Source of the DNA: a virus | Lineage: Duplodnaviria; Caudoviricetes | DNA length: 64,000 nucleotides | IMG/VR virus record: IMGVR_UViG_3300038393_000340 | Location: 6,372 to 70,371 of that record | Reading direction: 5' to 3' (one strand) | Shown here: one piece after another, positions 1,243-63,892 of the stretch | Layout of the letters: each line of letters starts with the position of its first letter | How positions within the stretch are numbered: the first letter of the stretch is position 1 | Notes under the pieces: generated by a model | What the model was told of the DNA's origin: nothing | What the model saw: only the letters and a program-made list of their open reading frames with translations | Databases searched by the model: none | Translations under genes and position numbers: made by a program

Positions 1243-1267
1243 ACTCATCTTGCAATCAATTGCGCCG

Positions 1268-1639
1268 TCAATGCAGTGCTTCCACCGTCATGAACTTGAT
1301 GGACCATAGCACTTCAAAGTCCGGGTCGTTGCGGCGGACGGTCATCGTGTGGTGGAACTCGTTGTGAGTACCTGACACGAATTCGATGGCTTGATACTCA
1401 CCGTTGGAGTTCACGAACTTCACCAGTGGCTTGGTCAAATGTTGCACCACCGTGTCCTGGTCGTCTTTAATGCTCATCATGGTGTCGAACAGGCTGTTGG
1501 CCTCGTCTTCCGCGATCAGGAGTTGCATCTTGTCACACATGCCCAACGACAAGTCGGTCAAGTCTTCTTCCTTGGTTCCCGCAATTGATTGCAGCGGCAT
1601 CACCAAGCCACCTTTCAGATAAGTATTCATGTTGCTCAC
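1268..1639 (-). CDS. hypothetical protein
   Basis: 123-aa ORF with RBS, 4-nt overlap with the upstream HTH gene. Confidence 0.75.
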   Translation of the reverse strand: MSNMNTYLKGGLVMPLQSIAGTKEEDLTDLSLGMCDKMQLLIAEDEANSLFDTMMSIKDDQDTVVQHLTKPLVKFVNSNGEYQAIEFVSGTHNEFHHTMTVRRNDPDFEVLWSIKFMTVEALH

Positions 1640-1872
1640 GTTTTTGCTCCTTTTCCTCGTTTGGTCTTTGGAACTTCTTGCAGCAATACTTCGGCAGGGA
1701 TGCCCAGCTTGTATAGGTTGGCGGCAATACGCAGGCTGATGTTCTTGCCACCTTTGCCGCGTACCAGATCACTGTAATGACCACCTGAGACATCGATCAA
1801 CTTAGCCATTTCTTCTTGCACTAGGTTGTGTTCGTTGCGGTACAACTCCATGGCTTCGATGATCGATATCAT
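1636..1872 (-). CDS. XRE/Cro-family helix-turn-helix protein
   Basis: YRNEHNLVQEEMAKLIDVSGGHYSDLVRGKG...ISLRIA fits the HTH_3 pattern. Confidence 0.8.
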   Translation of the reverse strand: MISIIEAMELYRNEHNLVQEEMAKLIDVSGGHYSDLVRGKGGKNISLRIAANLYKLGIPAEVLLQEVPKTKRGKGAKT

Positions 1873-2288
1873 TTTGCACCCGTGCTACCAAAACCGCCTT
1901 CCCCGCGTGCCGTCTTGTCCAAGGCTTCTTCAGCCACCAGCACTTGTTCAGGGTCGTGGTAGTCCACGAACAGGGCTTGGGCGATCTTGTCTCCCTCTTC
2001 TACGTAAAAGGCATATTCACCCATATTCATCAGGATAACGCCCACCTCACCCCGGTAATCGGGATCAACGAGGCCCGGCGCGTTCAACACAAATACACCC
2101 TTCTTGAGTGCCAGTCCAGAGCGGGATAGCACCAGCATGGCCTTACCCGATGGCAATGCCCCCTTGATTCCCGTACCGACAAGTCGAGACTGTCCCGGTG
2201 GGATCATGATGGCATGTGCCGCCCGGAGGTCATACCCGGCAGCGTTTTCGGTGGACTTATCCAGCGTCTTGGTGGTCAGGTAGTTCAT
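1869..2288 (-). CDS. dut: dUTPase (trimeric)
   Basis: Motifs AAGYDL, SRSGLALKKG, GLVDPDYRGEV, IAQ, RGEGGFGSTG. Confidence 0.97.
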   Translation of the reverse strand: MNYLTTKTLDKSTENAAGYDLRAAHAIMIPPGQSRLVGTGIKGALPSGKAMLVLSRSGLALKKGVFVLNAPGLVDPDYRGEVGVILMNMGEYAFYVEEGDKIAQALFVDYHDPEQVLVAEEALDKTARGEGGFGSTGAK

Positions 2289-2416
2289 TTTTTCCAGTCC
2301 TCCGGGTTGCTCTTGCTGACTTTGGCCTTTCCAGTCGCCAGCGCCACCAGCAGCAGGACGAAAAAGATAGTGGAAACGATGCCGATGTATTCAAAAACAC
2401 GGTCAAGGAGGGTCAT
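2285..2416 (-). CDS. small membrane protein (43 aa)
   Basis: Manual translation MTLLDRVFEYIGIVSTIFFVLLLVALATGK...; AAGGAGG RBS; ATGA overlaps on both sides. Confidence 0.6.
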   Translation of the reverse strand: MTLLDRVFEYIGIVSTIFFVLLLVALATGKAKVSKSNPEDWKK

Positions 2417-2724
2417 GCTGCCTCCTTCAACGGCACGAGGTTACGGGAGGCTTTCTTGGCCACTTGCCGCGCCACGTATTGCTGGTGTTTTGCGGGGAGA
2501 ACGCCATCAGCGATGCGGTCACGAGCGAACTTGGCGAGGATGTTCAATCCGTACACGCCGCCGTGGTAGCTGGGGTTGTCCTTCTGCTCGTTGCGCAATT
2601 GAGTGCGCGCGTTGGCCACACCGTATTGGTGCTTGGTCTTCCAGTTGATGTTGCGCGTCACTTGATTGGCGATGCTGCGGCGCAGCTTGTAGTCTTCAAA
2701 TTTCTCGTCTTGTTTGCGTTCCAT
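2413..2724 (-). CDS. hypothetical basic protein
   Basis: 103-aa ORF, AAGGAG RBS. Confidence 0.75.
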   Translation of the reverse strand: MERKQDEKFEDYKLRRSIANQVTRNINWKTKHQYGVANARTQLRNEQKDNPSYHGGVYGLNILAKFARDRIADGVLPAKHQQYVARQVAKKASRNLVPLKEAA

Positions 2725-2739
2725 GTGTTTCTCCTTTGG

Positions 2740-3036
2740 TTAGTTTGCTGCTTTTGCAGCATCGGATAATTCTTGGTCTTGCAGATAGCGTTCGATTGCT
2801 GTGTCTGCAATCTGACGCAGTGCTGACATCTTGGTCAGACCGGCCACCCACATACGATCAAGTTCCTCGTCTGTGAGTGTGCTTTTGGGGTATTCCTTCT
2901 CTGGCTTGATGCGGTACTTCATACCACTGTCCCACGCAGGGGTGAGGGCATCAGACCATCCTCCCAGGCTGAAGACTTGGATTTTAGCTCCATTGGCCCA
3001 GGCGATGATCAGATCAGCGTGCTTGTGTTTCGGCAT
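2740..3036 (-). CDS. phage hypothetical protein, tandem paralog 3 of 3
   Basis: KHKHADLIIAWANGAKIQ...W...P.W....YRIKPEK; similar to the two upstream ORFs. Confidence 0.85.
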   Translation of the reverse strand: MPKHKHADLIIAWANGAKIQVFSLGGWSDALTPAWDSGMKYRIKPEKEYPKSTLTDEELDRMWVAGLTKMSALRQIADTAIERYLQDQELSDAAKAAN

Positions 3037-3316
3037 TGTTTTTCTCCTGTTCTTTTACATAGTGTTGGATTGCCGTGTCCGCCACCGAACGTAAGGACAC
3101 CTCAAAATGGTCACTGCCACCCGAATGATAGTATATGTTTCTCAATTCTTGATCAGTCATGCTGGTGACGGGTTTGGGCCTTACTCTATAAGCGGTGTCC
3201 TCCTCCCAAAGAGGGTACTTCGCAACAGGGGTCCACACACCGGGGCGTTGTTCGTATTCAATTTGTTCACCTTCCGCCCACGCGATGATCAACTCTGCGT
3301 GTTTATGCCGCGCCAT
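3014..3316 (-). CDS. phage hypothetical protein, tandem paralog 2 of 3
   Basis: Start re-called at MARHKHAELIIAWAEG (CAGGAGAAAAACAATG RBS). Confidence 0.8.
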   Translation of the reverse strand: MARHKHAELIIAWAEGEQIEYEQRPGVWTPVAKYPLWEEDTAYRVRPKPVTSMTDQELRNIYYHSGGSDHFEVSLRSVADTAIQHYVKEQEKNNAETQAR

Positions 3317-3809
3317 TGTTTTTCTCCTGGTCTTGAATGTAACGTTTGATTCCGGCGTTGACCACCCGCCGCAGGCTTTGTGTGACTCCACCTGACTGGT
3401 TCCATAGTAACGTGAGTTCTTGGTCCGTGAGGGTGGTTTCGGGGTAAGTCTTCTCAGGACTAATTCTGTATTCACAGCTTTCGGACCACGAAGGACTGTC
3501 CCCTATGTAATCCCATGAAAGTGGGCCAGTCCTGACTTGAATTGCAACGCCATCCGCCCATGCCTTGATGAATTCCGCGTGTTTGTGTGGCTTCGCCATA
3601 TTTTTCTCCTTTTCACGTTTTTCTAAGGCTTCGATCAGCTTGCTCATGGCCAGCGTCCTATTCCTGAATTGACTTCTTTCGCTGTTGCAAGTGGCTTCAA
3701 TGCCCGTTGGTAAGTGAACTATACGCACCCCATTGTCCTGTCTTGACAGCCACCCTTGGGGTTTGGTGATGTAGGTGCTGACTTGGATGTCGTCAGGTTC
3801 AAACAGCAT
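3303..3809 (-). CDS. release-factor-like domain (no GGQ) in frame with tandem paralog 1 of 3
   Basis: First 70 aa PDDIQVSTY...VRIVHLPTGIEATCNSERSQFRNRTLAMSKL match the RF-1 domain; second RBS and ATG at 3599 (MAKPHKHAEFIKAWADG). Confidence 0.8.
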   Translation of the reverse strand: MLFEPDDIQVSTYITKPQGWLSRQDNGVRIVHLPTGIEATCNSERSQFRNRTLAMSKLIEALEKREKEKNMAKPHKHAEFIKAWADGVAIQVRTGPLSWDYIGDSPSWSESCEYRISPEKTYPETTLTDQELTLLWNQSGGVTQSLRRVVNAGIKRYIQDQEKNNGAA

Positions 3810-3993
3810 TCCCTTCCTCCACCAGTGAGTCAACATACGTGCAAAAGGCTTTCTTGGTGTCTTCCAGCTTTTGTTGGTGGCGCAGGAAGTTGCTGGCAAG
3901 GTCTGACAGTGCGAGGTCATGTGCAGCAACCGCCCACGCTTGGGCCAGTATCTTGAGGGTTACTGCTTGTTCAGCGGTCATGTAACCTCCCAT
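3799..3993 (-). CDS. hypothetical protein
   Basis: 64-aa ORF tiling between its neighbours. Confidence 0.6.
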   Translation of the reverse strand: MGGYMTAEQAVTLKILAQAWAVAAHDLALSDLASNFLRHQQKLEDTKKAFCTYVDSLVEEGNAV

Positions 3994-4162
3994 CAGGACG
4001 GCGACGAATCACGGCTTGGCAGAAATGTGCGCCGCCTCCACCCCCACTGCCAAACGGGAAGCCATACAACTCCCAGCCTTCTTGGAGGCTGTCATTTACT
4101 TCGTCAGTCAGTAGGTCACTGTTAGAAGCGCTAATCACCTTGTATTCATAGTCTTTGTTCAT
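3971..4162 (-). CDS. DUF1737-like small protein
   Basis: YKVISASNSDLLTDEVNDSLQEGWELYGFP...FCQAVIR resembles DUF1737. Confidence 0.65.
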   Translation of the reverse strand: MNKDYEYKVISASNSDLLTDEVNDSLQEGWELYGFPFGSGGGGGAHFCQAVIRRRPDGRLHDR

Positions 4163-4166
4163 TTCT

Positions 4167-4349
4167 TCACTCCTTGATTTGGGTCATGACAGCTTGCACG
4201 AATTTATCCCTACGTTGCTTGGCCACTTCGTACCATTTGTTCAGGCTAAAGTCGTAGTGTGAGGTTACTGAGGATATGCCAGCTTGTTCCTTGGCACTTG
4301 CCACTGCGTCAGCTAACTTGATGAGTTCGATTGCTTCTTCTTTGGTCAT
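4167..4349 (-). CDS. hypothetical protein
   Basis: Start re-called at MTKEEAIEL with AAGGAGTG RBS, downstream of the promoter at 4380-4408. Confidence 0.7.
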   Translation of the reverse strand: MTKEEAIELIKLADAVASAKEQAGISSVTSHYDFSLNKWYEVAKQRRDKFVQAVMTQIKE

Positions 4350-4379
4350 TTTCTTCACTCCTTGAAGTTCTATATCCAC

Positions 4380-4408
4380 ACTGTAATGTGGTTGGAACGG
4401 TTTGTCAA
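4380..4408 (-). promoter_or_regulatory. sigma70-type promoter, class I
   Basis: TTTGACAAACC..., TTGACA-17bp-TACAGT. Confidence 0.7.
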
Positions 4409-4442
4409 ATGCCTTTTGCAATCAATTGCGTAGAAACGACAG

Positions 4443-4850
4443 TCAGTCCCGCAAGAATTCTTCATACCCCACGTGGATCATGCCGTGCTTGGCTATGAAT
4501 TCCTTTTCTGGGGATACCTTCCTTACGAAGTCTCGGTGTTGCTTGTACTCGGGAGAGGTGTTGTCCCACACCTTGTGATGGTACTTGACGCCATTTAGCT
4601 CATAGGAGTCGTCCAACTTGGGAATCAGGTCGGCCAACCTCTTGGCTTCGGCTTGATAGTTGGCATAGTGGGCATCCCATTCGGTCTCCGTCACCTCGTG
4701 GTCACACACATACAGGCCGTTGATACGGTAATCGGAATAGCTGCCTTCTGAGAACGCATAGAAGTATAAGCCGTTGAGACGTGATAGTAGGTTAGGAATT
4801 TGTATTCTCCTTGCACACACGCAGGGTGCGGAAGTCGAATAGGTGATCAT
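4443..4850 (-). CDS. hypothetical protein
   Basis: ORF with GGAGG RBS before MITYS; start uncertain. Confidence 0.6.
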   Translation of the reverse strand: MITYSTSAPCVCARRIQIPNLLSRLNGLYFYAFSEGSYSDYRINGLYVCDHEVTETEWDAHYANYQAEAKRLADLIPKLDDSYELNGVKYHHKVWDNTSPEYKQHRDFVRKVSPEKEFIAKHGMIHVGYEEFLRD

Positions 4851-5070
4851 TACCCCTCCGGCGTGTTTGCTCTTGAAGGTCAGCACCACACTCTATCCAC
4901 GAATTCATGAGTTTGGATTTGAACTGGTAGACGAGTTCTTCTTGTTCCTTGGGTTGAGACACGGCGGCGTCGAACTCCACCAGCAAGTGAGCAAAGGCAG
5001 GGTCCCCATCTTTCCTGACAGCCTCTACGATACGTAGTGCCACGTCCTGTGCAGCCAAGTTCATATTCAT
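4792..5070 (-). CDS. hypothetical protein
   Basis: 92-aa ORF, AAGGAG RBS. Confidence 0.7.
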   Translation of the reverse strand: MNMNLAAQDVALRIVEAVRKDGDPAFAHLLVEFDAAVSQPKEQEELVYQFKSKLMNSWIECGADLQEQTRRRGNDHLFDFRTLRVCKENTNS

Positions 5071-5080
5071 TTCTTTCTCC

Positions 5081-5263
5081 TTATGTGTACTTGTGTAGTA
5101 TCTCGGATATCATCACTGACGCGAAGCCTATCAGTCCTAGGAGCATCAACAGTGCCGCCACCACATACCATTTCTCTTTGGGGTTATTCCTGTAGTCCGC
5201 CACCAGATTGATGATAAATCCAAGGAATAGCAGTCCTAGGCATATTTCTACTAGTAATCTCAT
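5081..5263 (-). CDS. small two-TM membrane protein
   Basis: Two hydrophobic stretches in 60 aa. Confidence 0.65.
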   Translation of the reverse strand: MRLLVEICLGLLFLGFIINLVADYRNNPKEKWYVVAALLMLLGLIGFASVMISEILHKYT

Positions 5264-5472
5264 AGTGTATTCTTGGCTTCCGACAGATGAGTTTGCGCAA
5301 TTGATTGCAGAATGTCTCCAGCCAGTTCTAGGCTCTCTGCCTTCCCTACCATTCCTTCTGTTCTTTGTTGTTTGGCTACCTCATATATCGCCGCCGCCAA
5401 CTCTTGGACTTCTCTTTGTTTGGCTAGGGCATCGAAGCCTTCCGTCAGTTCTTTGAAGAGGTTTCGGTTCAT
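5260..5472 (-). CDS. hypothetical protein
   Basis: Start re-called at MNRNLFKELTEG (GGAGG RBS, ATGA overlap). Confidence 0.65.
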   Translation of the reverse strand: MNRNLFKELTEGFDALAKQREVQELAAAIYEVAKQQRTEGMVGKAESLELAGDILQSIAQTHLSEAKNTL

Positions 5473-5600
5473 TTGGTCCTCCGCGACTCCCTGCTCAGAC
5501 TCACGTCTTTGTCTGTGCGGTAGTGCACTGTCTTGAGGTGTTTGATCTTTTCCCACTTCTTGGTGATGAAGTATTGGCCTACCCCATAGTGCAATGACAT
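5469..5600 (-). CDS. small hypothetical protein (43 aa)
   Basis: Manual translation MSLHYGVGQYFITKKWEKIKHLKTVHYRTDKDVSLSRESRRTK. Confidence 0.4.
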   Translation of the reverse strand: MSLHYGVGQYFITKKWEKIKHLKTVHYRTDKDVSLSRESRRTK

Positions 5601-5619
5601 CCGCCCGCCGTAGTAGCCT

Positions 5620-5898
5620 TCACGTTTGTTCCTGCTCATGGCGGCTCCTTTTTCTGTTCAGCACTTCATCCATGAATTCCTGAATAAGTTCCAGTCCCGT
5701 CACTTCAATAGGGAAGTTTTCAAGGACTTCATAGTTGTGTAGTTCTCCGGACTTGCTCTTTGGGGTTACTTTAGGAATAGTGGTGCCCCGCAAACTCATG
5801 AATCTGGCTACCCGAAGGTACTTGACAGGCTTACCATTTACGGTAGTGCCTTTGGCCAACTTGCCGCCATACCATCCTTCCCGCTTATTTCTGCTCAT
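5620..5898 (-). CDS. hypothetical protein
   Basis: 92-aa ORF, AAGGAG RBS. Confidence 0.7.
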   Translation of the reverse strand: MSRNKREGWYGGKLAKGTTVNGKPVKYLRVARFMSLRGTTIPKVTPKSKSGELHNYEVLENFPIEVTGLELIQEFMDEVLNRKRSRHEQEQT

Positions 5899-6055
5899 TT
5901 TGTTTCTCCTTCCAGCTTGGTGGCATGATGTCTAAAGCACTCTTCATCCCATCGTTGTGTCCTGATATCCAGCCTAAAACTAGGCCCGCCATGAAGCAGA
6001 TCACGCCCACAATTAGCGTCACCAGCAGCCACATTGAGTGATCATCGGTAATCAT
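5885..6055 (-). CDS. small membrane protein (56 aa)
   Basis: Manual translation MITDDHSMWLLVTLIVGVICFMAGLVLGWISG...; AAGGAG RBS. Confidence 0.6.
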   Translation of the reverse strand: MITDDHSMWLLVTLIVGVICFMAGLVLGWISGHNDGMKSALDIMPPSWKEKQNEQK

Positions 6056-6064
6056 GTTTTCTCC

Positions 6065-6298
6065 TTATATCGTCTTTCCATCATGTTTCTCTTCCTGTTT
6101 GATGGGTGTACAGTGGAAATCGTTGTCCTTGATTTCGCACTTGGTGTGGCGGATTTCGTCGTAGTAGTTGTTGACCCCATCCAGGAGGATGAAGCCTTGG
6201 TCTATGTTTGGTTCTGTGGCTTTCTCCACCAGCAGTAACATGCATGCGAACACCAGCAGAAACCAAAGCACTATTTCTCTTGTTTCTTTGTGGATCAT
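6065..6298 (-). CDS. small membrane or secreted protein
   Basis: Start re-called at MIHKE; N-terminal hydrophobic helix. Confidence 0.6.
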   Translation of the reverse strand: MIHKETREIVLWFLLVFACMLLLVEKATEPNIDQGFILLDGVNNYYDEIRHTKCEIKDNDFHCTPIKQEEKHDGKTI

Positions 6299-6327
6299 GG
6301 TGGACTCCTGCGCAATTGATTGCAACG

Positions 6328-6540
6328 TTAGAAGTACTTCCGGACCAGTAACTTCAGCCTGCGGTTGATGGCCTTGATGACCGCCGCCGTAGCGCTGCCC
6401 GCATAGCTGTAGAGGTAGACTCCATCCCGATCATGGGTCACACCCTTGAGTTGTAATTCCTCATTGGTGTGGGGGTCGATGATGTGAATGTCGCGGTCGG
6501 GGTACGTCAACAATATGTTGGCAAGAGTTCGTGCTCGCAT
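6328..6540 (-). CDS. hypothetical protein
   Basis: 70-aa ORF, AAGGAGTG RBS. Confidence 0.7.
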   Translation of the reverse strand: MRARTLANILLTYPDRDIHIIDPHTNEELQLKGVTHDRDGVYLYSYAGSATAAVIKAINRRLKLLVRKYF

Positions 6541-6613
6541 GGTGGTATCACTCCTTGATTTGCGTTAATGAAGAATCCCTGGAATCCTCGTATTTCAGGG
6601 GTTTTTGATGGGT

Positions 6614-6988
6614 TTAGCCCATGTCTTCTTGCTTGCAACCACCGAAGAATCCGCCCCCGCCAAAACGCTTGGAGAGGTGCTTGTTGGCTTCGGCCCTAAC
6701 ATCGATAGCAGCCGTGTTATGGTCGATGTTAATCAGTGCCGGTGTGGTCGGGCACGGCTTGCATTCCACACCTTCAGGCAGACGGCCAAACGCTGTCAGG
6801 CAGCGGATCATCATAGCCGTTGTGTGGGCGTCCAAGGTGTTGTCCAAGGCCAGGGCCACAAGAGGCTTGCCGGTCACCACGTCGGTAACGACTTCGATGC
6901 GGGAACCGTTCAGGTTCTCCGTCAGTCGGTCCAGCAGTTCTTGGACCATGGAGGTTTCTTTGAGGGTGTCGTTCATGTTGGTTTTCAT
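6614..6988 (-). CDS. hypothetical protein
   Basis: 124-aa ORF. Confidence 0.7.
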   Translation of the reverse strand: MKTNMNDTLKETSMVQELLDRLTENLNGSRIEVVTDVVTGKPLVALALDNTLDAHTTAMMIRCLTAFGRLPEGVECKPCPTTPALINIDHNTAAIDVRAEANKHLSKRFGGGGFFGGCKQEDMG

Positions 6989-7028
6989 CTTGGGTTAGGA
7001 AAAAACTCACTCCTTGAGTAGTTCTCGT

Positions 7029-7193
7029 CTAATCAAACAGTGCTACACGTTCACGAAGCATCTTATCCTTGAATTGCCGGTAGGTCATGACACCCCGCCC
7101 CCCTGTTTGGAACTTGGTGGCCAAGTATTTCTCATACCGTCGCCTCAAGAATGCTTCTATCTCTGGTGTTACCTCCACCGCTCGCTTACCCAT
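7029..7193 (-). CDS. small hypothetical protein (54 aa)
   Basis: Manual translation MGKRAVEVTPEIEAFLRRRYEKYLATKFQTGGRGVMTYRQFKDKMLRERVALFD; GGAGG RBS. Confidence 0.55.
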   Translation of the reverse strand: MGKRAVEVTPEIEAFLRRRYEKYLATKFQTGGRGVMTYRQFKDKMLRERVALFD

Positions 7194-7245
7194 GATTTCC
7201 TCCAATAAAGGTTACATCAGGGCAATTCTAGCAGTGTGGGGAGCC

Positions 7246-7515
7246 TCAGCGCCACATTGGTTTGTAAATCTTGGCTTCCCGCTCCGTCAGCATTGGATTG
7301 AGCTTCTTTTTGTCGCTCGTCACCAATAGCACCCGCTGGGTCTTGGCGTCGTACTTGATGACTCGGTACGACTGACCGTTGCCACGGTGCACTAACATGA
7401 GGGTTCCCATTTTACCCGTTAAGAATTGTCCTAGGGCATCAAAAATGGAATCTTCCCTCTGTTCCAATTCAGGTTGGGGATTGGGTGGCTTTTGAAATTT
7501 GATCTTCAGTCCCAT
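7246..7515 (-). CDS. hypothetical protein
   Basis: ORF; the listed TTG start overlaps the promoter, so the true start is probably a few codons downstream, after AAGGAGTG. Confidence 0.65.
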   Translation of the reverse strand: MGLKIKFQKPPNPQPELEQREDSIFDALGQFLTGKMGTLMLVHRGNGQSYRVIKYDAKTQRVLLVTSDKKKLNPMLTEREAKIYKPMWR

Positions 7516-7518
7516 TTC
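7490..7518 (-). promoter_or_regulatory. sigma70-type promoter, class I
   Basis: TTTGACAAACC..., TTGACA-17bp-TATAGT. Confidence 0.8.
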
Positions 7519-7609
7519 CGCACTCCTTGCAGTAATTCGCTACATTCTTACTATAAACCGTCTATTTGGGTTTGTCAAACTAATTCTCAAAATGTCGCTT
7601 TTAGGAAAC

Positions 7610-7634
7610 AAAAAAGCCAGCGGCTAGGCTGGCT
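7610..7634 (-). terminator. rho-independent terminator
   Basis: AGCCAGC/GCTGGCT stem followed by a U-tract on the minus strand. Confidence 0.7.
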
Positions 7635-7640
7635 ATTGTC

Positions 7641-7856
7641 TTATGCGTACACGGGTTCTCCGGGCGGCAGGATAAGATACCCTCTTGGGTCCGACCCCAC
7701 ATCACCCGCCAAACGACGCTGGCCTGTCCATGGATTGAATAACCATGCCGTGTCCCATCCATGATAATCTCGCCACTGCTTGGCATGCGAAGGGTAGGGT
7801 TTTTCCGTGCCTTCAGCCGGATCGTACTTCATCAGGGTGTCTTGGTGCTTGTCCAT
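7641..7856 (-). CDS. hypothetical protein
   Basis: 71-aa ORF with RBS. Confidence 0.7.
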   Translation of the reverse strand: MDKHQDTLMKYDPAEGTEKPYPSHAKQWRDYHGWDTAWLFNPWTGQRRLAGDVGSDPRGYLILPPGEPVYA

Positions 7857-7863
7857 GATTACC

Positions 7864-8154
7864 TTAGACGTTTCTTGGTTTGTATTGGTCTGACAAGGAT
7901 TTCAACTCTTGCCACATGGCCCATGGTTCTGTGGGGCAGGGAAAGTAGTGACCACTCTTCTGGTCGATGTAGATCAATCCGAGTTGGGTCAACTTGGCAA
8001 CGATGCCGTGTGGGGTTCTCCCCATCCGGTCGCACAGGGCTTTCAGATCGAAGCCATGCATGAACAGGTGCTTGAGTTGATCCTGATCCTCCGTGGACCA
8101 CACCTTTCCTTGGTTTGGGGCAATTAGAGCCTGTCCCTGCTCTGTAGTTTCCAT
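7864..8154 (-). CDS. Myb/homeodomain-like HTH protein (putative)
   Basis: WSTEDQDQLKHLFMHGFDLKALCDRMGRTPHGIVAKL fits W..E.d..L...G.....IA..lgRt..aI..rL. Confidence 0.55.
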   Translation of the reverse strand: METTEQGQALIAPNQGKVWSTEDQDQLKHLFMHGFDLKALCDRMGRTPHGIVAKLTQLGLIYIDQKSGHYFPCPTEPWAMWQELKSLSDQYKPRNV

Positions 8155-8160
8155 TAAACA

Positions 8161-8440
8161 CTCCTGTGATGGATACCTAAAGTTTGGGGCACCTTACGAA
8201 TGGGCCTCTCACCCATATCAAACGCTGCCGCGAGTCCTCTGGTACTTGAGTTACCGTAAGGTGGTTGTAGTCAGGTTCAGTAGGCGCCGAATATCCGGAT
8301 TACGTGCCCACTGTAGCTCTTTTCCAACAGTTGGAAGCTTTTCCGGCTCGTGGTCCTGAAAAGAACCAGACGAGCTGAGGGAGGATGGAAAAGCTTCCAA
8401 CTGTGGGCCCTCCCCGGATTGCCGTCCGTACTACAGGAGG
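8161..8440. ncRNA. putative structured RNA or DNA element (nested inverted repeats)
   Basis: Perfect 18-bp IR at 8327-8344/8387-8404 with an inner hairpin; CACCTTACG/CGTAAGGTG stem; CTCCTGT/ACAGGAG at the two ends; no long ORF with an RBS. Confidence 0.55.
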
Positions 8441-8512
8441 GTGGCTATTTGTGTTGAGTGTCTTAACTGTTGCTCTCCCGGTCGCCTTCCGGGTTTCTGC
8501 CTATCGCAGAAC

Positions 8513-9343
8513 TTATGCTGCTGCTTCCGCTTGCGGGGCTTCCACCGTGCCGTCGCCGTTCACGTTGTCCACGCTCAGGTCCACACCGGGGAACACGGCT
8601 GCATACAGCTTCAGCGCTTCTTCCCAGCCAAGTTCACGCAGGGCTTGCGCCGCCGATTGGGTATCCACTTTCGTGGCGATCTGGCCGGACAGGTAGCCCG
8701 CCATCACGTTCTCCAGTGCCACCGAATCGAACTCGGTGCCGGTGTCGGCCTTGGCCTTGTTCAGTGCTTGCTGCACGGTCTCGGCTTGGTCTGTCTTCAG
8801 GTCGAACTTCAGCTTGACCGAATCGCTCGTGGTCTTGGCCGAACCTGCTTCGCCTTCCGGTGCATTAGCTTTCAGCGCGGCTTGGAGTTGGACCACCGTC
8901 AGCTTCTCAGCCTTGGCAACCCACTCTTCCACGTTTTCCGGCGTCAGCACGTCCACGAGGTCTTTCAGCTTGGTCCAGCCCAGCGGTGCCACGATGGACC
9001 ACGGGATTTGCTTGTCGATCAGGCCGGTGTAGATTTTCATCAGGTAGTCGGCCTTGCGCTTCTTGAAGCCGAACTTCTCGTACACGTACTCATCGAACGA
9101 CTCAAAGCCTTCAAACCAGCTTTGCTCGTAGATGCGCTTCAGCACGCCGCCCAGCTTGAAGTAGTTGGTCTCGATGTTCTCGGCCAGCGTCTCGGCCAGC
9201 GACAGCGCCTTTTGGCGGGTCAGGCTTTCGACTTCGGACGCGACATCGAAGAACACGTCACCCGACTTGGTGGACTTCTTGCCCACAACTTTGATTTCAG
9301 GCGCGGCTTCTTGCACCTGCGCACCTTCATTGGTCTCATTCAT
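8513..9343 (-). CDS. putative DNA-binding protein (DUF3102-like region)
   Basis: YFKLGGVLKRIYEQSW...FDEYVYEKFGFKKRKADYLMKIY resembles DUF3102-type helical proteins; has its own promoter. Confidence 0.5.
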   Translation of the reverse strand: MNETNEGAQVQEAAPEIKVVGKKSTKSGDVFFDVASEVESLTRQKALSLAETLAENIETNYFKLGGVLKRIYEQSWFEGFESFDEYVYEKFGFKKRKADYLMKIYTGLIDKQIPWSIVAPLGWTKLKDLVDVLTPENVEEWVAKAEKLTVVQLQAALKANAPEGEAGSAKTTSDSVKLKFDLKTDQAETVQQALNKAKADTGTEFDSVALENVMAGYLSGQIATKVDTQSAAQALRELGWEEALKLYAAVFPGVDLSVDNVNGDGTVEAPQAEAAA

Positions 9344-14305: not shown

Positions 14306-14316
14306 TTCTAACTCCT

Positions 14317-54794: not shown

Positions 54795-56401
54795 GCTGTG
54801 GCCTTGCGGAAGTATTGGACGGCGTTGGGATTATTCAGCGGCAGGCGCATCCCCAGTTGTTCCCTGCTCAGCAGGTATTCGCCCACCTTCTGGCCGTCGA
54901 TGGTGAATGGCAGATTCAACAGGGCTTGGAGCCCGTCTTCGGAGCGGCTGGACAAAACGTCGATCACGGCTTGCTGCTCATGCTCCGACAGGGATGAAAT
55001 AGTCAGGTCCCCGGCATCCAATTGGGTGAGGATATCGTTTTTCAAATCGTACCAATCCGCCGTACTTGGGACGAAACCCATGTCAGAGTACGAGCGTACC
55101 GAATCGCCATCCACCGCCATAGTCAGGTACTCCGCCCCCATGGATAGTCCGACATCTACCATGCCATTCATGATCAGGCCAAGGTTGGTGGCGGCAGCGG
55201 TCGGGGTCGAGTCCAAGAACAGGGCAGACATCACCTTCATCACGGAAGCGTAGGGGTCGTATGTCATGGCCATGGCCAGCTTCGATCCCAAGTCTCCCGG
55301 CAGGGTATTCTTCACTGCAAACTTGATGTCCCCGTTCTGGTCGAACGAAATCACCTTCTTCTTGGCTTCCATCACGTCTTGCTGGGTCAGCCCGCTCACC
55401 TTGGACACGAAATCCACAGGCTTCAAGTTCACGTAGGTGTTCCAAAGGTCAAGCTGGTCAGGAGTGATTGGGTTGCCGATGTCTTGGAAGTCCTGGGGGG
55501 TGGACTTCTTCTCCGGGATGATCCGCGCCTCCTGTGGGACTTCAGGCATTTGAATCTTGGGTGCCGACCCAACTTTTGTGCACAGCGTGCGGCAGTTGGG
55601 GTGGAACGGCGGGATATGCAGGCCCATCCGGGTCAGTTCGGCGGAACTGGCCTTGCTGAACATTTCGATGGAAGCCTTATCCTGCTTGGGCCATGGCTGC
55701 ACCGTCTTCAGGTCGTTGGGGTCTTGAACTTTCAAGACACGGTTGATCATGCTCGTGGCGTCAGCGACCTTGAAGCGCTTGCCATTGATGGCACGGCAGA
55801 ATGCCGAAGTGCGGCCATCCAGCACGGCAGTCAACTGGTACTCCGTATAGCCCAGCACCTCAGCCTCCGCCGTGAACCCCCATGTGGATAGGCGTGACGA
55901 GTGGAGGGATGAAATCATCTTCAGTTGGCTGTTGCCAGCCTGCTGGAACGACACGAAGTCCTTCACGTACCGTTGCTTTTCCGCCTTGGTGGCGGGGGCA
56001 ACTTCAGCCCGCGCAATTGATTGCAGCGCGTCTTGCTGTACGGACTGGGTGACGTTGTAGGCAAGAAGTTGCATGAAGTTGTCCACCACCAAGTCCAGCA
56101 GTCCATCATGGTTGGAGGCGGACACGAAGGTTTTGCTGGGGTCCATCCCGCCTGCCATCGCCCCGCCATACAGAATGCATGACTGGAGGATGGCCTTGAT
56201 GTAGTTGCGGCATTCGTCTCCCACATCCACGAAGCTGATGGTGGAAACAACCTGCCGGGCGTCATCAAACTTCCCCTCCGCAATGAGGGTGTTGATCTGC
56301 TCCATCAAGGCAGAGGCTTGTGGTTGCCACGCCCGCAACAAGACACGTTGCAGGCTGGCTTCCAAGTCGAGGTAGGAACGAAAGTCCATCAGTGGGAGCA
56401 A
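54791..56401 (-). CDS. MuF/SPP1 gp7-like head morphogenesis protein with C-terminal extension
   Basis: YQ..AVLDGRTS.FCR.I.GK.F and PPFHPNCRT, followed by about 260 extra aa. Confidence 0.85.
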   Translation of the reverse strand: MLPLMDFRSYLDLEASLQRVLLRAWQPQASALMEQINTLIAEGKFDDARQVVSTISFVDVGDECRNYIKAILQSCILYGGAMAGGMDPSKTFVSASNHDGLLDLVVDNFMQLLAYNVTQSVQQDALQSIARAEVAPATKAEKQRYVKDFVSFQQAGNSQLKMISSLHSSRLSTWGFTAEAEVLGYTEYQLTAVLDGRTSAFCRAINGKRFKVADATSMINRVLKVQDPNDLKTVQPWPKQDKASIEMFSKASSAELTRMGLHIPPFHPNCRTLCTKVGSAPKIQMPEVPQEARIIPEKKSTPQDFQDIGNPITPDQLDLWNTYVNLKPVDFVSKVSGLTQQDVMEAKKKVISFDQNGDIKFAVKNTLPGDLGSKLAMAMTYDPYASVMKVMSALFLDSTPTAAATNLGLIMNGMVDVGLSMGAEYLTMAVDGDSVRSYSDMGFVPSTADWYDLKNDILTQLDAGDLTISSLSEHEQQAVIDVLSSRSEDGLQALLNLPFTIDGQKVGEYLLSREQLGMRLPLNNPNAVQYFRKATA

Positions 56402-58940: not shown

Positions 58941-59057
58941 TTAGTAGTAGAAGTAGACAAGCACGCACTCAATTGCAACGTAGAGAACACTTGCCAGAAG
59001 GACACAGGTTTCACACATCGACACATTCTTGAAGGCGGGAATTGCCGGGATTTTCAT
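58941..59057 (-). CDS. small membrane protein (38 aa)
   Basis: MKIPAIP...VLLASVLYVAIECVLVYFYY; GGAGG RBS. Confidence 0.4.
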   Translation of the reverse strand: MKIPAIPAFKNVSMCETCVLLASVLYVAIECVLVYFYY

Positions 59058-59058
59058 G

Positions 59059-59184
59059 TCACCTCCGGAACAGCAGGAGGGCCAGTACCGACAGGAGAAC
59101 CGGGGAGGCCACAGCAGCCAATGCCAATCCGGTAAAGACACGCCACATCACATTGCAGGCGTAACACTTATTGGAATCTTCCAT
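59059..59184 (-). CDS. small membrane protein (41 aa)
   Basis: MEDSNKCYACNVMWRVFTGLALAAVASPVLLSVLALLLFRR; AAGGAGTG RBS. Confidence 0.5.
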   Translation of the reverse strand: MEDSNKCYACNVMWRVFTGLALAAVASPVLLSVLALLLFRR

Positions 59185-59448: not shown

Positions 59449-59482
59449 AGAGTTTGTGCAATCAATTGCGCAGACTTCTGAA

Positions 59483-59907: not shown

Positions 59908-62308
59908 GTTTGAGTTTTTTCAGGTCGGCCATGTTCTTGCCGATCTTCGCGTCAGCGGTGAAGACAAGACGTGGTTTCCAGCCCACTTTGTGGAAGGGAA
60001 GGTTTTGCATGCTGTCCAGTTCCCGCTTTACATACATTTCCACGTTGTCCTCAGGTATGTAGTTGTAGAGGGCGTCATGGATGGCGCCGAAGGCCGGGCA
60101 CACCTCCGTCCAGCCATTGGCTTGGGCGATGGCGGCGGACCACAGCAGCATATCGGACAGCGTTCCTTGGATCGGCGCGTTGATGGCTTGACGTTCCGCC
60201 TTGGCCCGGATGTCTTGCATGGGGGAGTTGATCAGCGGGAGGTGGCGCACACGTCCCAGCGGCGAGCGCACGAACCCATTCTTGCGAGCAAACTTCTTGT
60301 ACTCGTCGTGGTAGTCAGGTAGTTGCGGGTAGCGCAGGAAGAATCCAGTCCTGAATTTGTCCGCATCAGACCTGAAGAAATTCTTGACCCCGTAGTTGTT
60401 GATTGCGTAGTCGTAGAAGCCATCTGCACCCATGCCATAGATCAAGCCGAAATTACCTGCCTTGCCAAGCTGGCGAATCTCTTCAAACAGGTGGAACAGT
60501 TCTGGATTGGTGTCCTCCATGGCTTTCATGGCCATCATGTCTTCGTACTCGTAGCCCCGGAACGGCCCGGCAGTCAGCGAATGGAGGTCCATGTCCTGTA
60601 GATAGGCTTGGATCATGTTCTCTTCGTTGGCCACACAGGCGATGACCTTCAATTCCCCTTGGGAGTAGTCGCGCTCACACACCACGTAGCCAGGGGGCGC
60701 CGGGAAGCAGCGGCGGATGCGCTTGCCCCATGCCGTATGTTTGGGAATGGTCTGGAATGCCGGGTCCTTGCATGACAACCGCCCTGTGTTCGTGCCCCCC
60801 TCGTCCTCATCCTTCTTGCCGACAAAGAACCAGTAGGAGGGGTGGAACTTGCCGTCTGAACGGATGTGCTTTTGAAAGCCCCGCACGTAGGTGCTCATGG
60901 TCTTACTGGCACTGGCATACGCCTTGATGATGCTCACGAACTCCTTGGCGGCAGGGTCATCTTCAAACATCAACAGGTGCTCCATGGCCGTGGATGGCTC
61001 ACCCGATTTCTCCGTCATCATCTTGGGCTTCAAGTTCAGGCCCATGGGGGAGAACATGAAGTCTTTCAGCAGGGAGGCTTTCGTCAGGTTCAGGCCGAGT
61101 TCCTGTTTGGGGTCATGGTGCTTGATGCACAGGCGCCCACCCATCATGGCCTTGGCCTTCTTGACGTGGGTGGTCATGTCGGACAACAGGTCGGCTTCCA
61201 ACTCCTTGTAGGCGTCCATGTCCACCAGCACCCCGCCCTGCTCCACCTCTTCAAAGGCGCGGGCAGCGGGATGCAGGATGTTGACGTAGAAGGCGGTGGC
61301 TGCGGGGTCGGCCAGCAGTTCCGCCGTCATGGCCTTGCGGACTTGGTGGCAAGCGTCGGTGTCCCCGCCCGCGTAGGGCAACAGCTTTTCCGGGGGCACA
61401 AGGTCCATGCGGGATTTGTCCACGCTCAGGTCGAATTGATCCGAGTATCCTCCAAGTGCCGGAACATAAATCTTGGCGTGCACGTCCAGGCCATTGGAGC
61501 GGTTTTCATCCAGCATGGAGCCCACCAACGTGGTGTCGAACTTGAAGTTGCTGCACTTCAGCTTGGCACGTCGGGCGATCCAGTGGAGGTCGAATTTCAG
61601 GTTGGCGCCGCCCAAGGAAATCTTGGGGGAGTTCAGGATATGCGACAGGTCCAACATGAATTGGAAGTCGCCCAACCGTTTTTCTTCATCCTCACGGGAG
61701 TGGAAGTACACCACATCCGCCATGCCGTCGTCGTAAGTCAACTGGATGGACACGATGCGGGCGCCGGGATGGTCGGCGGTAGGCAGGGCATACGGGTCCA
61801 TGCCGATGGTTTCCAAGTCCAGTTCCACGGGGACCGGCTTGTTGGTTTTGTCGTACATCTTGTCGATGGCCGCGATGGTCTCCGCGAAGTCGGGGACGTA
61901 GCGGTAGTTGCCCATCTTCGCAGCCAGCGAACCCGTCAGGGCATAGCGCATGGCCATGCCGGTGTCGCACAGCAGGTCGATGTGCTTGGCATAGTCGATG
62001 TCTCCGATGCCTGCCCCGTAGGAGAACATCAGTTGGCAGTCGGTTTCCGGCAGCTTCCACAACTGGTTGCGCAGGCTGGCCGTGGTGCGGTTCTTGGGGA
62101 GGGCCTTGATCTCTTGGAGGAACGGCTTGCAAAGGTCCCCCAAGCAAAAGATGATGCTGTCCCCGTGGGCGTAGGGAATGGTTTCCCCACCCAACACTTC
62201 GATTTCCAGTTCAGGGGACCGCTTGGTGACGGGCGCAATGGCCTTCATCACCTTTTGCAAGGAGTCCTTCGTCCATATTTTGAGTTTGCTCAATTCAGGC
62301 TCTCCCAC
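59897..62308 (-). CDS. polA: DNA polymerase family A with 3'-5' exonuclease and degenerate N-terminal UDG-like domain
   Basis: Exo I DLET, exo II NLKFD, exo III YAGGDTD; TGRLS...P.FQ.IP, DYSQGELK, R..GKAGNFG.IYG, INAPIQG, IHDAL. Confidence 0.96.
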   Translation of the reverse strand: MGEPELSKLKIWTKDSLQKVMKAIAPVTKRSPELEIEVLGGETIPYAHGDSIIFCLGDLCKPFLQEIKALPKNRTTASLRNQLWKLPETDCQLMFSYGAGIGDIDYAKHIDLLCDTGMAMRYALTGSLAAKMGNYRYVPDFAETIAAIDKMYDKTNKPVPVELDLETIGMDPYALPTADHPGARIVSIQLTYDDGMADVVYFHSREDEEKRLGDFQFMLDLSHILNSPKISLGGANLKFDLHWIARRAKLKCSNFKFDTTLVGSMLDENRSNGLDVHAKIYVPALGGYSDQFDLSVDKSRMDLVPPEKLLPYAGGDTDACHQVRKAMTAELLADPAATAFYVNILHPAARAFEEVEQGGVLVDMDAYKELEADLLSDMTTHVKKAKAMMGGRLCIKHHDPKQELGLNLTKASLLKDFMFSPMGLNLKPKMMTEKSGEPSTAMEHLLMFEDDPAAKEFVSIIKAYASASKTMSTYVRGFQKHIRSDGKFHPSYWFFVGKKDEDEGGTNTGRLSCKDPAFQTIPKHTAWGKRIRRCFPAPPGYVVCERDYSQGELKVIACVANEENMIQAYLQDMDLHSLTAGPFRGYEYEDMMAMKAMEDTNPELFHLFEEIRQLGKAGNFGLIYGMGADGFYDYAINNYGVKNFFRSDADKFRTGFFLRYPQLPDYHDEYKKFARKNGFVRSPLGRVRHLPLINSPMQDIRAKAERQAINAPIQGTLSDMLLWSAAIAQANGWTEVCPAFGAIHDALYNYIPEDNVEMYVKRELDSMQNLPFHKVGWKPRLVFTADAKIGKNMADLKKLKLAA

Positions 62309-62685
62309 TTCTGTTTGGATTCAGAAAACTTGTAGGTGGATACGATACCCTTTTCCAGCTTCTTCATGGTCTCGCCCAGCTTGCCGGTCCCGAACGTCTT
62401 CAAGGTGGATTGGTTCAGACCCACCAGCCCGCCATTGACCACATGCAGCAGCATGCCGGTATCCGATGCTTCGATGTACAGCCACAGGTCCTTGTTCACG
62501 TGGACGAAGAACGTGGCGTAGTCGGGTTGGATGACATCCGACAGGGCGGTGGGCTCGTAGTGTAGCATCCACGGCCCCACCTTGACGGCTTGCTTGGCCT
62601 TGCCGAGATAGCCCCCGATGAAGGGGACCAGGGGGACTTGGATGGTGTCCGCCACGGAGTACAACAGGGATTCTTTCGTCGTCAT
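62290..62685 (-). CDS. hypothetical protein
   Basis: 131-aa ORF, GGAGG RBS. Confidence 0.75.
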   Translation of the reverse strand: MTTKESLLYSVADTIQVPLVPFIGGYLGKAKQAVKVGPWMLHYEPTALSDVIQPDYATFFVHVNKDLWLYIEASDTGMLLHVVNGGLVGLNQSTLKTFGTGKLGETMKKLEKGIVSTYKFSESKQKWESLN

Positions 62686-62939
62686 GCCAGCACCTCCAAT
62701 AAGAGTTCACCCTCCACCACTTCCGCGATCACGTCGGCCACATGGATGCCCTTCCAGTACAGGGCGAACTCCCAATAACCTTTTTCGGTGGTGGCATTCC
62801 ACGTGGATTCACGCAGGATCGCTTGAGAGGCTTCCGCATCGATCCCCGGCAGGACAGTCGGGAAGGTACACGATTGGCCGATGGCCAGCCCCTTGAAGCG
62901 TTCGATCAGTCCCTTACCCACATTTCCAGTCGCTTTCAT
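62682..62939 (-). CDS. hypothetical protein
   Basis: 85-aa ORF, GGAGG RBS, ATGA overlaps. Confidence 0.7.
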   Translation of the reverse strand: MKATGNVGKGLIERFKGLAIGQSCTFPTVLPGIDAEASQAILRESTWNATTEKGYWEFALYWKGIHVADVIAEVVEGELLLEVLA

Positions 62940-63892
62940 TTGTCCTCCGGAATATCGTTGACGTTGATGATCATCTGGTCGTATTCAACCCCCAACCCCA
63001 TCAGGAAGGAGCCCACGATCTTGCCAAGAGAGACCGTATCCCCGTTCTGGTTGGTGGTGCCCACATGCATGGACATATAGGCCCCCTCATCATTCTTGCC
63101 GACCCCCAGCCCAAGGTTCTTCATGTGGTTAATAAGGGTGCTGCCGACGACTCCGGAGAACTCCACCCGGAAGCTGATTTGGCCATGGGTGTGGTAGCGG
63201 TTGCGCATCGCCACCTTGACCAGATCGCTCCGGGCGATCACGTAGTACTTGGCTTCCGGCGACGTACCACGGACTTGCTGGCCAATCTGAGTGGCTTCAC
63301 GCAACCGCACCACCGGGGGACCACCCGGCTTGATCTTAGGTTTGGTGGCCGTCTTGGGCGTAGGTGGCACGGTAAAAGTCTGTGGCCCCGGCGATGTTGG
63401 CGGGGGTGCACCAAGCGCTTCCGAAAAGTTTCCCACTATGGAGCTAAGGCTAGGAGCTTTCAGCTTACTTGCCTGCTGTGCCATCGCAGCATGTATTTCT
63501 TTATCCAGGGGCAATTCAACCTTGGAAAGAGCCTGTTTCGCGGCCTGAAGGCTTGCCACGGAAGCATCCGTCACATCCTTGGTGTCGACAGATGGCAAGG
63601 CCGAGATTTCAGCCGCCAGTTCTCCGTACAGGGCCAGCATGACCTTTTTCGTTGCCGCCAGTTGTGGGCTGTCCGGCGCAATTGATTGCAGCGACGGGGT
63701 GGACAACGGCAAGTTGGTGGCAATCACTTGCCCGCTCCCATAGTGGAACGCAAGGTTGTAGAACTTGGTTTCCACCTTGATGTAGCCATCCTTGATCTGC
63801 TTGGCCAGTGGCTCAAAGTACTTTACCGGCAGCAGTTTTTCCAACAGAGCCAACTGAGCATCCATGGAGAGTTCCTTCACATTAAGTGCCAT
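62936..63892 (-). CDS. hypothetical protein
   Basis: 318-aa ORF, AAGGAGTG RBS, own promoter. Confidence 0.8.
   Translation of the reverse strand: MALNVKELSMDAQLALLEKLLPVKYFEPLAKQIKDGYIKVETKFYNLAFHYGSGQVIATNLPLSTPSLQSIAPDSPQLAATKKVMLALYGELAAEISALPSVDTKDVTDASVASLQAAKQALSKVELPLDKEIHAAMAQQASKLKAPSLSSIVGNFSEALGAPPPTSPGPQTFTVPPTPKTATKPKIKPGGPPVVRLREATQIGQQVRGTSPEAKYYVIARSDLVKVAMRNRYHTHGQISFRVEFSGVVGSTLINHMKNLGLGVGKNDEGAYMSMHVGTTNQNGDTVSLGKIVGSFLMGLGVEYDQMIINVNDIPEDK

Follow-up and report, generated by a model that had tools for sequence, protein, structure and literature searches.

A dispersed 14-bp dyad motif in an uncultured soil phage and its distant relatives, and a candidate ParB-type phage protein that may read it

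Scattered palindromes of 14-16 bp, bound by protein dimers, organise or mark a replicon rather than regulate single genes in the cellular systems of Noc (NBS sites), MatP (matS) and dispersed parS, of which Noc and ParB carry a CTPase domain. Plasmid RK2 of the IncP group has about a dozen operators for its KorB protein. From a position just before a -35 box, at a distance of a few bp, or from kilobases away, these operators mediate repression by a CTP-gated sliding clamp, and KorB needs its CTPase domain both for sliding and for long-range repression (PMC11790492). In phages, Cluster A mycobacteriophages (L5, Bxb1) carry stoperators, 13-14-bp repressor sites that occur genome-wide in addition to the operator at the early promoter (PMC9283540, PMC6550527), and one tight cluster of five Cluster O mycobacteriophages carries a 17-bp dyad repeat, TGTTCGGNNNCCGAACA, in 34 copies (PMC4351075). 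Here we describe an array of a short dyad motif in a stretch of 64,000 nucleotides (the window), bases 6372-70371 of the 70,371-bp uncultured viral contig IMGVR_UViG_3300038393_000340 (genome label G000), an incomplete contig with a CheckV completeness of 72%. The array is genuine, under selection as DNA, evenly spaced, neutral in orientation, specific to phage DNA and conserved in very distant relatives. Its candidate reader is p276, a 276-aa protein of phrog_17202 encoded at 8513-9343 (- strand).

Dispersed operator arrays are a known kind of element. What is distinct here is the conservation across phages of different bacterial classes, the measured spacing and selection, the copies embedded in codons and a candidate reader that is predicted to be of ParB type and lacks a CTPase domain. 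Like the KorB operator OB of RK2, the motif is a short palindrome dispersed on a mobile replicon, some copies lying near a -35 box and others distant from any promoter, and its 14-bp dyad resembles the 13-16-bp palindromes of ParB and KorB systems, being present here in 24-50 copies per genome, some of them promoter-adjacent. Unlike the operators of RK2, the 25-50 copies per genome are evenly spaced and mostly inside genes, and at about one site per 2-3 kb the density is far higher than that of the Noc, MatP or parS sites. Similar to the Cluster O repeat, the motif occurs as a dyad in more than 30 copies genome-wide, in intergenic DNA, at gene ends and mid-gene, has an asymmetric centre whose orientation has no clear meaning, is absent from host genomes (here, all but absent from bacterial assembly G011 outside its phage part) and has few copies near promoters. 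Motif, host phylum and phage lineage are nevertheless unrelated, so that the resemblance is one in kind only, and in contrast to the Cluster O case the arms persist in phages that infect different bacterial classes, both the even spacing and the purifying selection have been measured and a candidate reader can be named. The stoperators likewise are many short sites across a phage genome and represent genome-wide control by one phage protein. They are, however, asymmetric, bound by a monomeric repressor and oriented with transcription, while the site described here is a dyad with an intergenic orientation ratio of 42:42 and a centre that flips, many of its copies lie deep in coding sequence, and p276 is not known as an immunity repressor.

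The 12-mer core of the motif, GCAATCAATTGC, has 20 exact and 13 one-mismatch copies on both strands of the window, 33 in all, and 24 exact and 14 one-mismatch copies in the whole 70-kb contig. One hundred dinucleotide-preserving shuffles of the window averaged 0.52 copies and never gave more than 2. A previous reading of the DNA from its letters (the original prediction) had arrived at the same 20 exact copies, but at 8 with one mismatch and a total of 28, figures that the recount replaces. Several of its other statements hold: the sites differ from the asymmetric, oriented L5 stoperators in being dyads of neutral orientation, the orientation is roughly balanced (11:9 for exact copies, 19:14 for all copies), every gene of the window faces one way (all are on the - strand, 95% of which is coding), and the arms read YGCAAT/ATTGCR, the Y...R flanks lengthening the dyad to YGCAATCAATTGCR. 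The largest gap, given as about 5.4 kb, is about 5.3 kb (34985 to 40331) over the 33 copies and 9.1 kb when exact copies alone are considered. The 2-bp spacer inside the 12-mer is invariant and the centre is CA or TG, mismatches being mostly confined to it, and beyond +/-8 the flanks of different copies are unlike one another. The claim that the centre is never self-complementary is right for this window, but relatives also show minor TA and CG centres. The general form of the motif is TGCAA-N4-TTGCA, and that of this clade is YGCAA-TCAA-TTGCR.

About 26 of the 38 copies of the contig are inside open reading frames (ORFs), in three different frames, and spell the peptides LQSIA, LQLIA, AINC and NQL; the frame that would give TGA is never occupied by a genic copy. 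The original prediction had reported such recurring peptides, had attributed them to selection on the DNA at the expense of the protein and had named a codon-preserving shuffle as the appropriate null. A synonymous-codon shuffle of each gene, in which protein and codon usage are fixed, leaves a mean of 7.6 exact copies (maximum 10) compared to the 24 observed, and approximately 5.5 of the 7.6 survivors are intergenic copies, which the shuffle leaves untouched. A codon-order shuffle leaves 5.5 exact copies. The peptides account for only about 2 of the approximately 18 genic exact copies, which implies that the DNA word itself is selected, as had been claimed.

Placement and orientation were tallied for 222 exact sites in eight genomes. 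Intergenic or gene-edge sites make up 38% compared to about 7% expected, genic sites are concentrated toward gene ends, and the sites seem to be placed where their cost is lowest. The orientation is 42:42 for intergenic and 82:56 for genic sites, the latter fitting the 3:2 ratio that is expected when TGA occurs in a single frame of one of the two orientations. Distances between sites have a coefficient of variation of 0.43-0.73, where random placement would give about 0.94 (P < 0.03 in six of the eight genomes), at a density of about one site per 2-3 kb. The dyad, the fixed spacer, the neutral orientation and the even spacing together point to a reader that acts as a symmetric dimer on double-stranded DNA and needs its sites genome-wide. 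The array of a dimeric binding protein that had been postulated is thus supported indirectly, by the dyad, the neutral orientation, the tolerated CA/TG flips, the purifying selection described below and the codon null. A small hairpin that acts at the RNA level, or a miniature mobile repeat, is scarcely credible as an explanation of the array. Extended forms of the motif, such as those with TT...AA flanks in relative G005, could fold a 6-bp stem with a 4-nt loop, however, such a stem is short and weak, the 12-mer alone leaves a 2-nt loop, and both orientations are equally used despite the location of all genes on one strand. Flanks beyond 14-16 bp are unrelated, which leaves no likeness to a transposed unit, a repetitive extragenic palindrome or a miniature inverted-repeat transposable element, and the positions of copies are conserved within orthologous codons.

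Relatives were found via the motif-plus-promoter pattern and via proteins; a near-identity DNA search with the tail region against cultured phages gave no match. Scanning IMG/VR with the pattern motif-N9-TTGACA yielded 17 loci. Ten of the contigs that hold these loci were counted in full and contain the 12-mer 2 to 50 times, mostly 9-50 times, the lowest counts being those of a 24.6-kb fragment (3 copies) and of G004 (2 copies), and a control pattern is found 0 times in all ten. In genomes with a G+C content between 50% and 62% the motif ranks first among over-represented 10-mers, with flanking bases that vary by genome. The relatives share with this phage a core of replication, recombination and head genes at 25-60% amino-acid identity. 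Among cultured phages, the Stenotrophomonas phages DLP5, DLP3 and Summit (genus Delepquintavirus) have 27, 24 and 26 copies, respectively. With the centre left free (TGCAA-N4-TTGCA) there are 24 copies in G004 (common centre GCGA), 17 in Rhizobium phage TM16 (CATA), 9 in Rhodobacter phage RcZahn (TCAA and TTAA), 11 in G008 (TCAA) and, weakly, 3 in Vibrio phage SIO-2 (mixed centres), with 0 occurrences of the reversed control pattern in any of these five. The motif-bearing group comprises phages of about 100 kb, both uncultured and cultured. A full-text literature search for the 12-mer returned unrelated papers only, and the DLP3 paper makes no mention of a palindrome and uses the word 'motif' once; the array is, as far as this search goes, previously undescribed for this phage group.

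Conservation of sites in relatives, which the original prediction had proposed as a check, was found at two evolutionary distances. DLP5 and DLP3 are 82% identical in DNA, and between them 4 of 168 motif bases differ (2.4%) compared to 135 of 840 bases in the 60-nt flanks (16%; Fisher p = 1.2e-7); at one of their sites CA has switched to TG, so that the motif is kept and its orientation reversed. Between more distant phages, copies in the helicase, initiator-like and MuF-like genes stand at homologous codons although the proteins are 30-60% identical and the surrounding DNA is scrambled, and flips of the centre at such homologous genic sites give AINC/AIDC and LQSIA/LQLIA, that is, N/D and S/L swaps. 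The exact copy in the superfamily 2 (SF2) helicase gene (15397-15408, - strand, spelling AINC) recurs at homologous codons in three relatives, G002, G003 and G007, two of which show a flipped centre. That near the 3' end of the initiator-like gene 20704-21765 (20846-20857, + strand) has a homologous site in G003, G005 and G007, and that in ORF 54791-56401 (56013-56024, - strand, LQSIA), which the earlier reading assigned to MuF, is found at homologous codons in G001, G002, G005 and G009. Conservation of this kind also bears on an explanation that we consider very improbable, namely that the motif, which contains CAATTG, serves as a target for an enzyme that modifies or nicks DNA or is related to restriction. 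In G005, 50 of the 56 CAATTG hexamers are inside the motif and some relatives encode ParB-methyltransferase fusions, but being a modification target would not by itself select for extra sites, even spacing or conservation in codons, and no methyltransferase or nickase is common to all motif-bearing genomes; contig data are incapable of showing nicks or modification.

The specificity of the motif for phage DNA was assessed in four bacterial assemblies, three of which are metagenome-assembled genomes (MAGs) and none of which is a Stenotrophomonas chromosome. In assembly G011, 19 of 21 copies fall in the first 48 kb of one contig, which is its phage part, and 2 in the other 4.65 Mb; the three other assemblies, which hold distant relatives, have 0-5 copies each. 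A host-wide word of the type of a DNA uptake sequence or Chi is not supported, as G011 is unenriched outside its phage part and the copies have no orientation bias, with the reservation that the chromosome of the actual host was not among the four assemblies. The phage relative in G011 occupies bases 1 to about 48,000 of the 374-kb contig C20 (locus L072), which was binned as an Acidobacteriaceae MAG. This phage part is either an integrated or contiguous prophage or the product of a chimeric assembly.

In each genome 2-7 copies of the motif sit 7-10 nt upstream of a -35 box, and these promoter-linked copies occupy positions from about -56 to -45. In the window, the exact copies at 1252-1263, 4418-4429 and 59458-59469 (all + strand) precede a TTGACA -35 box of the - strand by 9 nt; the first is intergenic, ahead of gene 1206-379, the second is at the start edge of ORF 4167-4421 and the third is intergenic. 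A one-mismatch copy at 24225-24236 (- strand, intergenic) stands 8 nt before the TTGACA -35 box that precedes an operon of AAA-ATPase and replication genes. Another at 9423-9434 (+ strand, intergenic) stands 8-9 nt before TGGACA, the -35 box of the p276 gene. The layout of the p276 promoter, which consists of the motif, 7-9 nt, TTGACAAAC, about 17 nt and a -10 box, is present in G000, G002, G003, G005, G007, G009, DLP5 and RcZahn; G003 and DLP5 each have just one other promoter that is linked to the motif. The presence of the motif at the promoter of p276 itself suggests that p276 probably autoregulates and co-regulates several early and middle operons.

The position from -56 to -45 is also that of an UP element, and a conserved host factor could in principle read the motif for compaction or transcription, either an IHF-like protein, given that the motif contains WATCAA, or the C-terminal domain of the RNA polymerase alpha subunit. 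We consider this quite unlikely. The core is identical in phages whose hosts span different bacterial classes, and AATCAA within the motif agrees with the conserved part of the IHF consensus; the flanks, however, lack the TTR part of that consensus. Nor would a degenerate site for a host factor require 12-14 exactly kept bases with a dyad, and the lineage-specific centres TCAA, GCGA and CATA fit a reader that co-evolves with the phage. Moreover, G011 is unenriched outside its phage region and the majority of copies are distant from any promoter.

p276 is present in every motif-bearing genome examined, and it belongs to a family of about 4,400 clusters at 50% identity that is without annotation. 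In cultured phages its orthologues are DLP05_067, DLP3_062, Summit_066 and gp66 of RcZahn. Its AlphaFold2 model (mean pLDDT, a per-residue model-confidence score, 85) has a disordered N-terminus, a helical domain at about residues 40-165, a flexible disordered linker and a helical C-terminal domain. A Foldseek search and an independent all-against-all search with VIA-align both return ParB-family DNA-binding domains. VIA Z-scores range from 4.3 to 8.5, with 8.5 for the ParB-parS complex 6s6h, 7.6 for 1vz0, 7.2 for the KorB-operator complex 1r71 and 6.5 for 8qa8, and the matches to ParB-parS and KorB-operator complexes span 105-115 residues at Z 7-8.5; further fold matches are the DNA-binding domains of Spo0J, SopB, VirB and P1 ParB. 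The predicted domain thus superposes on the DNA-binding domains of KorB and ParB (Z 6.5-8.5; 1r71, 8qa8), and like that of KorB, the gene of the candidate reader is under a motif-bearing promoter. Four residues of p276, R96, Y100, W123 and K125, are invariant or nearly so in the family and lie in or just after the predicted recognition helix, which fits the invariant half-site of the motif. Residue 153, which is Gln instead of Glu in this phage and in G003 (E153Q), accompanies C instead of T at motif positions +/-7; this covariation is not significant, there being two independent lineages only and 3-4 columns with the same pattern. The model and the conserved promoter layout suggest that the motif may be an operator lattice of a dimeric phage protein and p276 its reader, a proposal to which we attach about even confidence.

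Several observations weigh against p276. The Foldseek matches have probabilities of 0.85-0.99 but weak E-values of about 0.3, the fold scores are middling for an all-helical protein (a Z below about 13 can reflect a common helical arrangement), and the best VIA match is Raf1. No sequence-level link to ParB or KorB was found by Pfam, NCBIfam or a profile search against PDB sequences, and the leads from the ESM Atlas are weak (DUF3102 and 'ParB HTH' clusters at 0.83). By their co-occurrence across phages, p276 and about 25 other core genes are indistinguishable. The promoter link is incomplete as well: in 33 further IMG/VR loci the motif is present at the p276 promoter in only 12-13 and missing from about 20, including the array-rich L214 and L230. 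A subclade has at this promoter, instead of the motif, a GATGCC-N5-GGCATC palindrome between the -35 and -10 boxes. Finally, the mechanism of KorB is not transferable as it stands, since p276 has no CTPase domain. The GATGCC-N5-GGCATC palindrome was found at L203, L206, L211 and L217, less clearly at L216, L219 and L223, approximately 70-100 nt upstream of the p276 homologue, and is possibly the operator of a different repressor.

The original prediction had named four proteins as binders, of which p276 is now favoured over the product of 13883-14305, and the other two have been set aside. The small helix-turn-helix (HTH) genes at 1636-1872 and 7864-8154 (7859-8161) have no homologue in any motif-bearing relative and therefore cannot encode a shared reader. 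The initiator-like protein was rejected on another ground. Its own gene contains iterons of 22 bp, and these change from each genome to the next whereas the motif is constant, hence its product reads the iterons and not the invariant motif. In the window these direct repeats lie at 21334-21432 within gene 20704-21765, and orthologues in G002, G003 and G009 have 2-3 direct repeats of a 22-23-bp period at the same relative position; they look like a lambda-style origin inside an initiator gene. Two near-copies of the motif with centre CC (21390-21423, + strand), counted as one-mismatch copies at 21390 and 21412, belong to this set and are probably origin repeats rather than members of the array. 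A positionally conserved copy of the motif lies about 450 bp downstream of the repeats.

The gene at 13883-14305 (- strand) encodes a MerR/excisionase-type HTH protein of 140 aa. That the sites are operators of this protein, or of a ParB_N protein encoded beside the terminase in relatives, in a region that lies outside this incomplete contig, is unlikely. The MerR-like protein is conserved in G002, G003, G005, G007, G009 and DLP5, strongly so in its HTH segment, and the 283-aa ParB_N protein, which belongs to a family that reads dispersed palindromes, is found in G002, G003, G004, G007, G008 and DLP5. The MerR-like protein, however, has no detectable homologue in the motif-carrying Rhodobacter and Rhizobium phages, and the ORFs at the matching position of RcZahn are unrelated. 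The ParB_N protein was rejected as a universal reader because it is absent from two complete array-rich genomes, G005 (50 copies, with terminal repeats) and G009 (23 copies), and neither gene has a conserved motif-bearing promoter. In most relatives the 283-aa protein is encoded two genes upstream of the large terminase gene. Genes for ParB-like or ParB_N proteins are at 69945-73322 and 1892-3232 of DLP5, 12962-13819 of G002 and 61973-62821 of G003. DLP5 has an additional ParB-like domain in a protein encoded just after the portal gene, and G005 has two other ParB_N proteins instead, one of which is fused to a methyltransferase domain.

The genes for RecA, the SF2 helicase, a Cas4/RecB-like exonuclease, RuvC and a second resolvase are encoded beside the p276 gene, which is compatible with a role of the motif in recombination or nuclease control, either as a phage analogue of Chi that acts on the phage's own helicase, Cas4-like exonuclease and RecA or as a hotspot of module exchange. 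Even spacing would suit whole-genome protection or repair, and in Cluster O mycobacteriophages deletions by recombination between dyad repeats have been reported (PMC4351075). We nonetheless give this explanation a slim chance, because signals of the Chi type are asymmetric, read on a single strand and oriented, and here the site is a dyad that is neutral in orientation and tolerates CA/TG flips. Apparent breakpoints of metagenome contigs beside two copies (5310 and 6325) are artefacts, as they match the flanks of other motif copies beyond bases 1-20000.

We propose that TGCAATCAATTGCA is the target of p276, each outer arm, which is invariant, being contacted by one subunit of a dimer. The central helical ParB/KorB-like HTH domain would bind the motif and the C-terminal helical domain could dimerise. 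At the few copies that precede the -35 box of a strong sigma-70-type promoter by 7-9 nt, that of p276 included, binding would regulate early and middle operons. The remaining copies, one every 2-3 kb, which occupy intergenic DNA or gene ends if they can and fall within codons elsewhere, would form a genome-wide lattice of bound dimers. Unlike KorB, p276 is without a ParB_N CTPase domain and hence could not form a CTP-gated sliding clamp: searches of Pfam and NCBIfam assigned p276 to no named family, its model has only the disordered N-terminus ahead of the helical domain, and PF02195 has no match in the whole contig. Again unlike the KorB system, no ParA/IncC partner is encoded here, and no homology to KorB is detectable in the sequence. 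Because neither a CTPase domain nor a ParA is available, we propose that the dimers form a static lattice instead of a clamp that slides.

The lifestyle of the cultured members may indicate what such a p276-bound lattice would be for. DLP5 and DLP3 are reported to form stable lysogens, and DLP5 itself was isolated in episomal form; for VHS1, which infects Vibrio and belongs to the wider group, an extrachromosomal state has likewise been described. No tyrosine integrase was found in G000, G002, G003, G005 or G009. The ParA-type ATPase PF13614, which was found in 14 of 14 control genomes, is absent from the complete genomes of G002, G003, G005, G009 and DLP5, and this makes a classical ParABS segregation unlikely. 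Stable lysogens or episomes in phages that have no integrase make two functions the most attractive, which by analogy we would rank as (1) a KorB/Noc-like global dampening or organisation of the phage chromosome and (2) a ParA-independent maintenance of a DLP5-type episomal prophage. Going further, and with considerable reserve, we suggest that an orphan ParB-type DNA-binding protein without a CTPase domain and its TGCAA-N4-TTGCA lattice might constitute an unrecognised chromosome-marking system in phages of about 100 kb that infect Alpha- and Gammaproteobacteria and soil bacteria. As a static lattice, the two might serve episome persistence and segregation, or the silencing of the phage genome as one unit and its distinction from host DNA, with neither an integrase nor ParA.

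Across phages of different bacterial classes this 14-bp word is kept more faithfully than any protein, and at a measurable coding cost; its reader, of whatever kind, has to be important for fitness. Should the lattice be the basis of episomal carriage or of silencing of the whole genome, the stable lysogens that form with neither an integrase nor ParA would be accounted for, and if p276 is its reader, a very large unannotated family of phage proteins would gain a role. The cultured members DLP5, DLP3, Summit, RcZahn and TM16 make the function directly testable, and DLP3 has been discussed as a candidate for therapy.

The other copies in the window are distributed as follows. Exact copies that spell LQSIA are in ORF 1268-1639 (1581-1592, - strand), ORF 5260-5556 (5297-5308, - strand) and ORF 62936-63892 (63678-63689, - strand), the last of which also has a one-mismatch copy at 63720-63731 (+ strand). 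The 1751-aa ORF 42201-47456, a tape measure gene according to the earlier reading and without annotation in this analysis, contains a one-mismatch copy at 43117-43128 (- strand) and exact copies at 43918-43929 (+ strand, LQLIA) and 44770-44781 (+ strand, QLIA). Exact copies are also found at the 5' end of ORF 6065-6325 (6312-6323, - strand), in ORF 18061-18528 (18467-18478, - strand), near the 3' ends of ORF 26849-28570 (26916-26927, + strand) and ORF 33544-33975 (33578-33589, + strand), and at the start edge of ORF 51228-51698 (51695-51706, + strand). Further one-mismatch genic copies are at 2595-2606 (- strand, ORF 2413-2724), 30759-30770 (- strand) and 31949-31960 (+ strand), both in ORF 30641-33538, 47959-47970 (+ strand, ORF 47691-48101), 50137-50148 (+ strand, ORF 49728-50177) and 58965-58976 (+ strand, ORF 58941-59141). 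Intergenic exact copies lie in the tail gene region (34974-34985, + strand), at 40331-40342 (+ strand) and directly upstream of ORF 53945-54559 (54560-54571, - strand), and an intergenic one-mismatch copy is at 11635-11646 (- strand).

In ORF 24293-24931, called a spanin gene by the earlier reading, an exact copy near the 5' end (24890-24901, - strand) spells A-I-N-C about 10 codons past the start (24890-24931), after a hydrophobic MFSLATIIGA..., and may provide the cysteine of a lipoprotein signal, judging from the sequence.

The replication and recombination genes that could be identified encode a dUTPase, RecA, an SF2 helicase, a Toprim primase, a DnaB-type helicase, RuvC, a Cas4-like exonuclease and a family A DNA polymerase, and the structural genes a portal protein and tail proteins. 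DNA near-identical to the contig is contained in seven soil and rhizosphere metagenome runs, and no RNA run was listed among those that contain it. The gene directly upstream of p276 (9440-10117) encodes a basic 225-aa protein whose orthologue is gp61 of DLP3. That protein was detected by mass spectrometry in ghost-particle preparations of DLP3 (PMC7326821, Table 4), and a product of this type in ghost particles is unexpected for a gene of a recombination module. At 3303-3929 a 208-aa protein is encoded that has a PHROGs match to the RF-1 (peptide chain release factor) domain family (E = 5e-15), which the earlier reading had flagged too.

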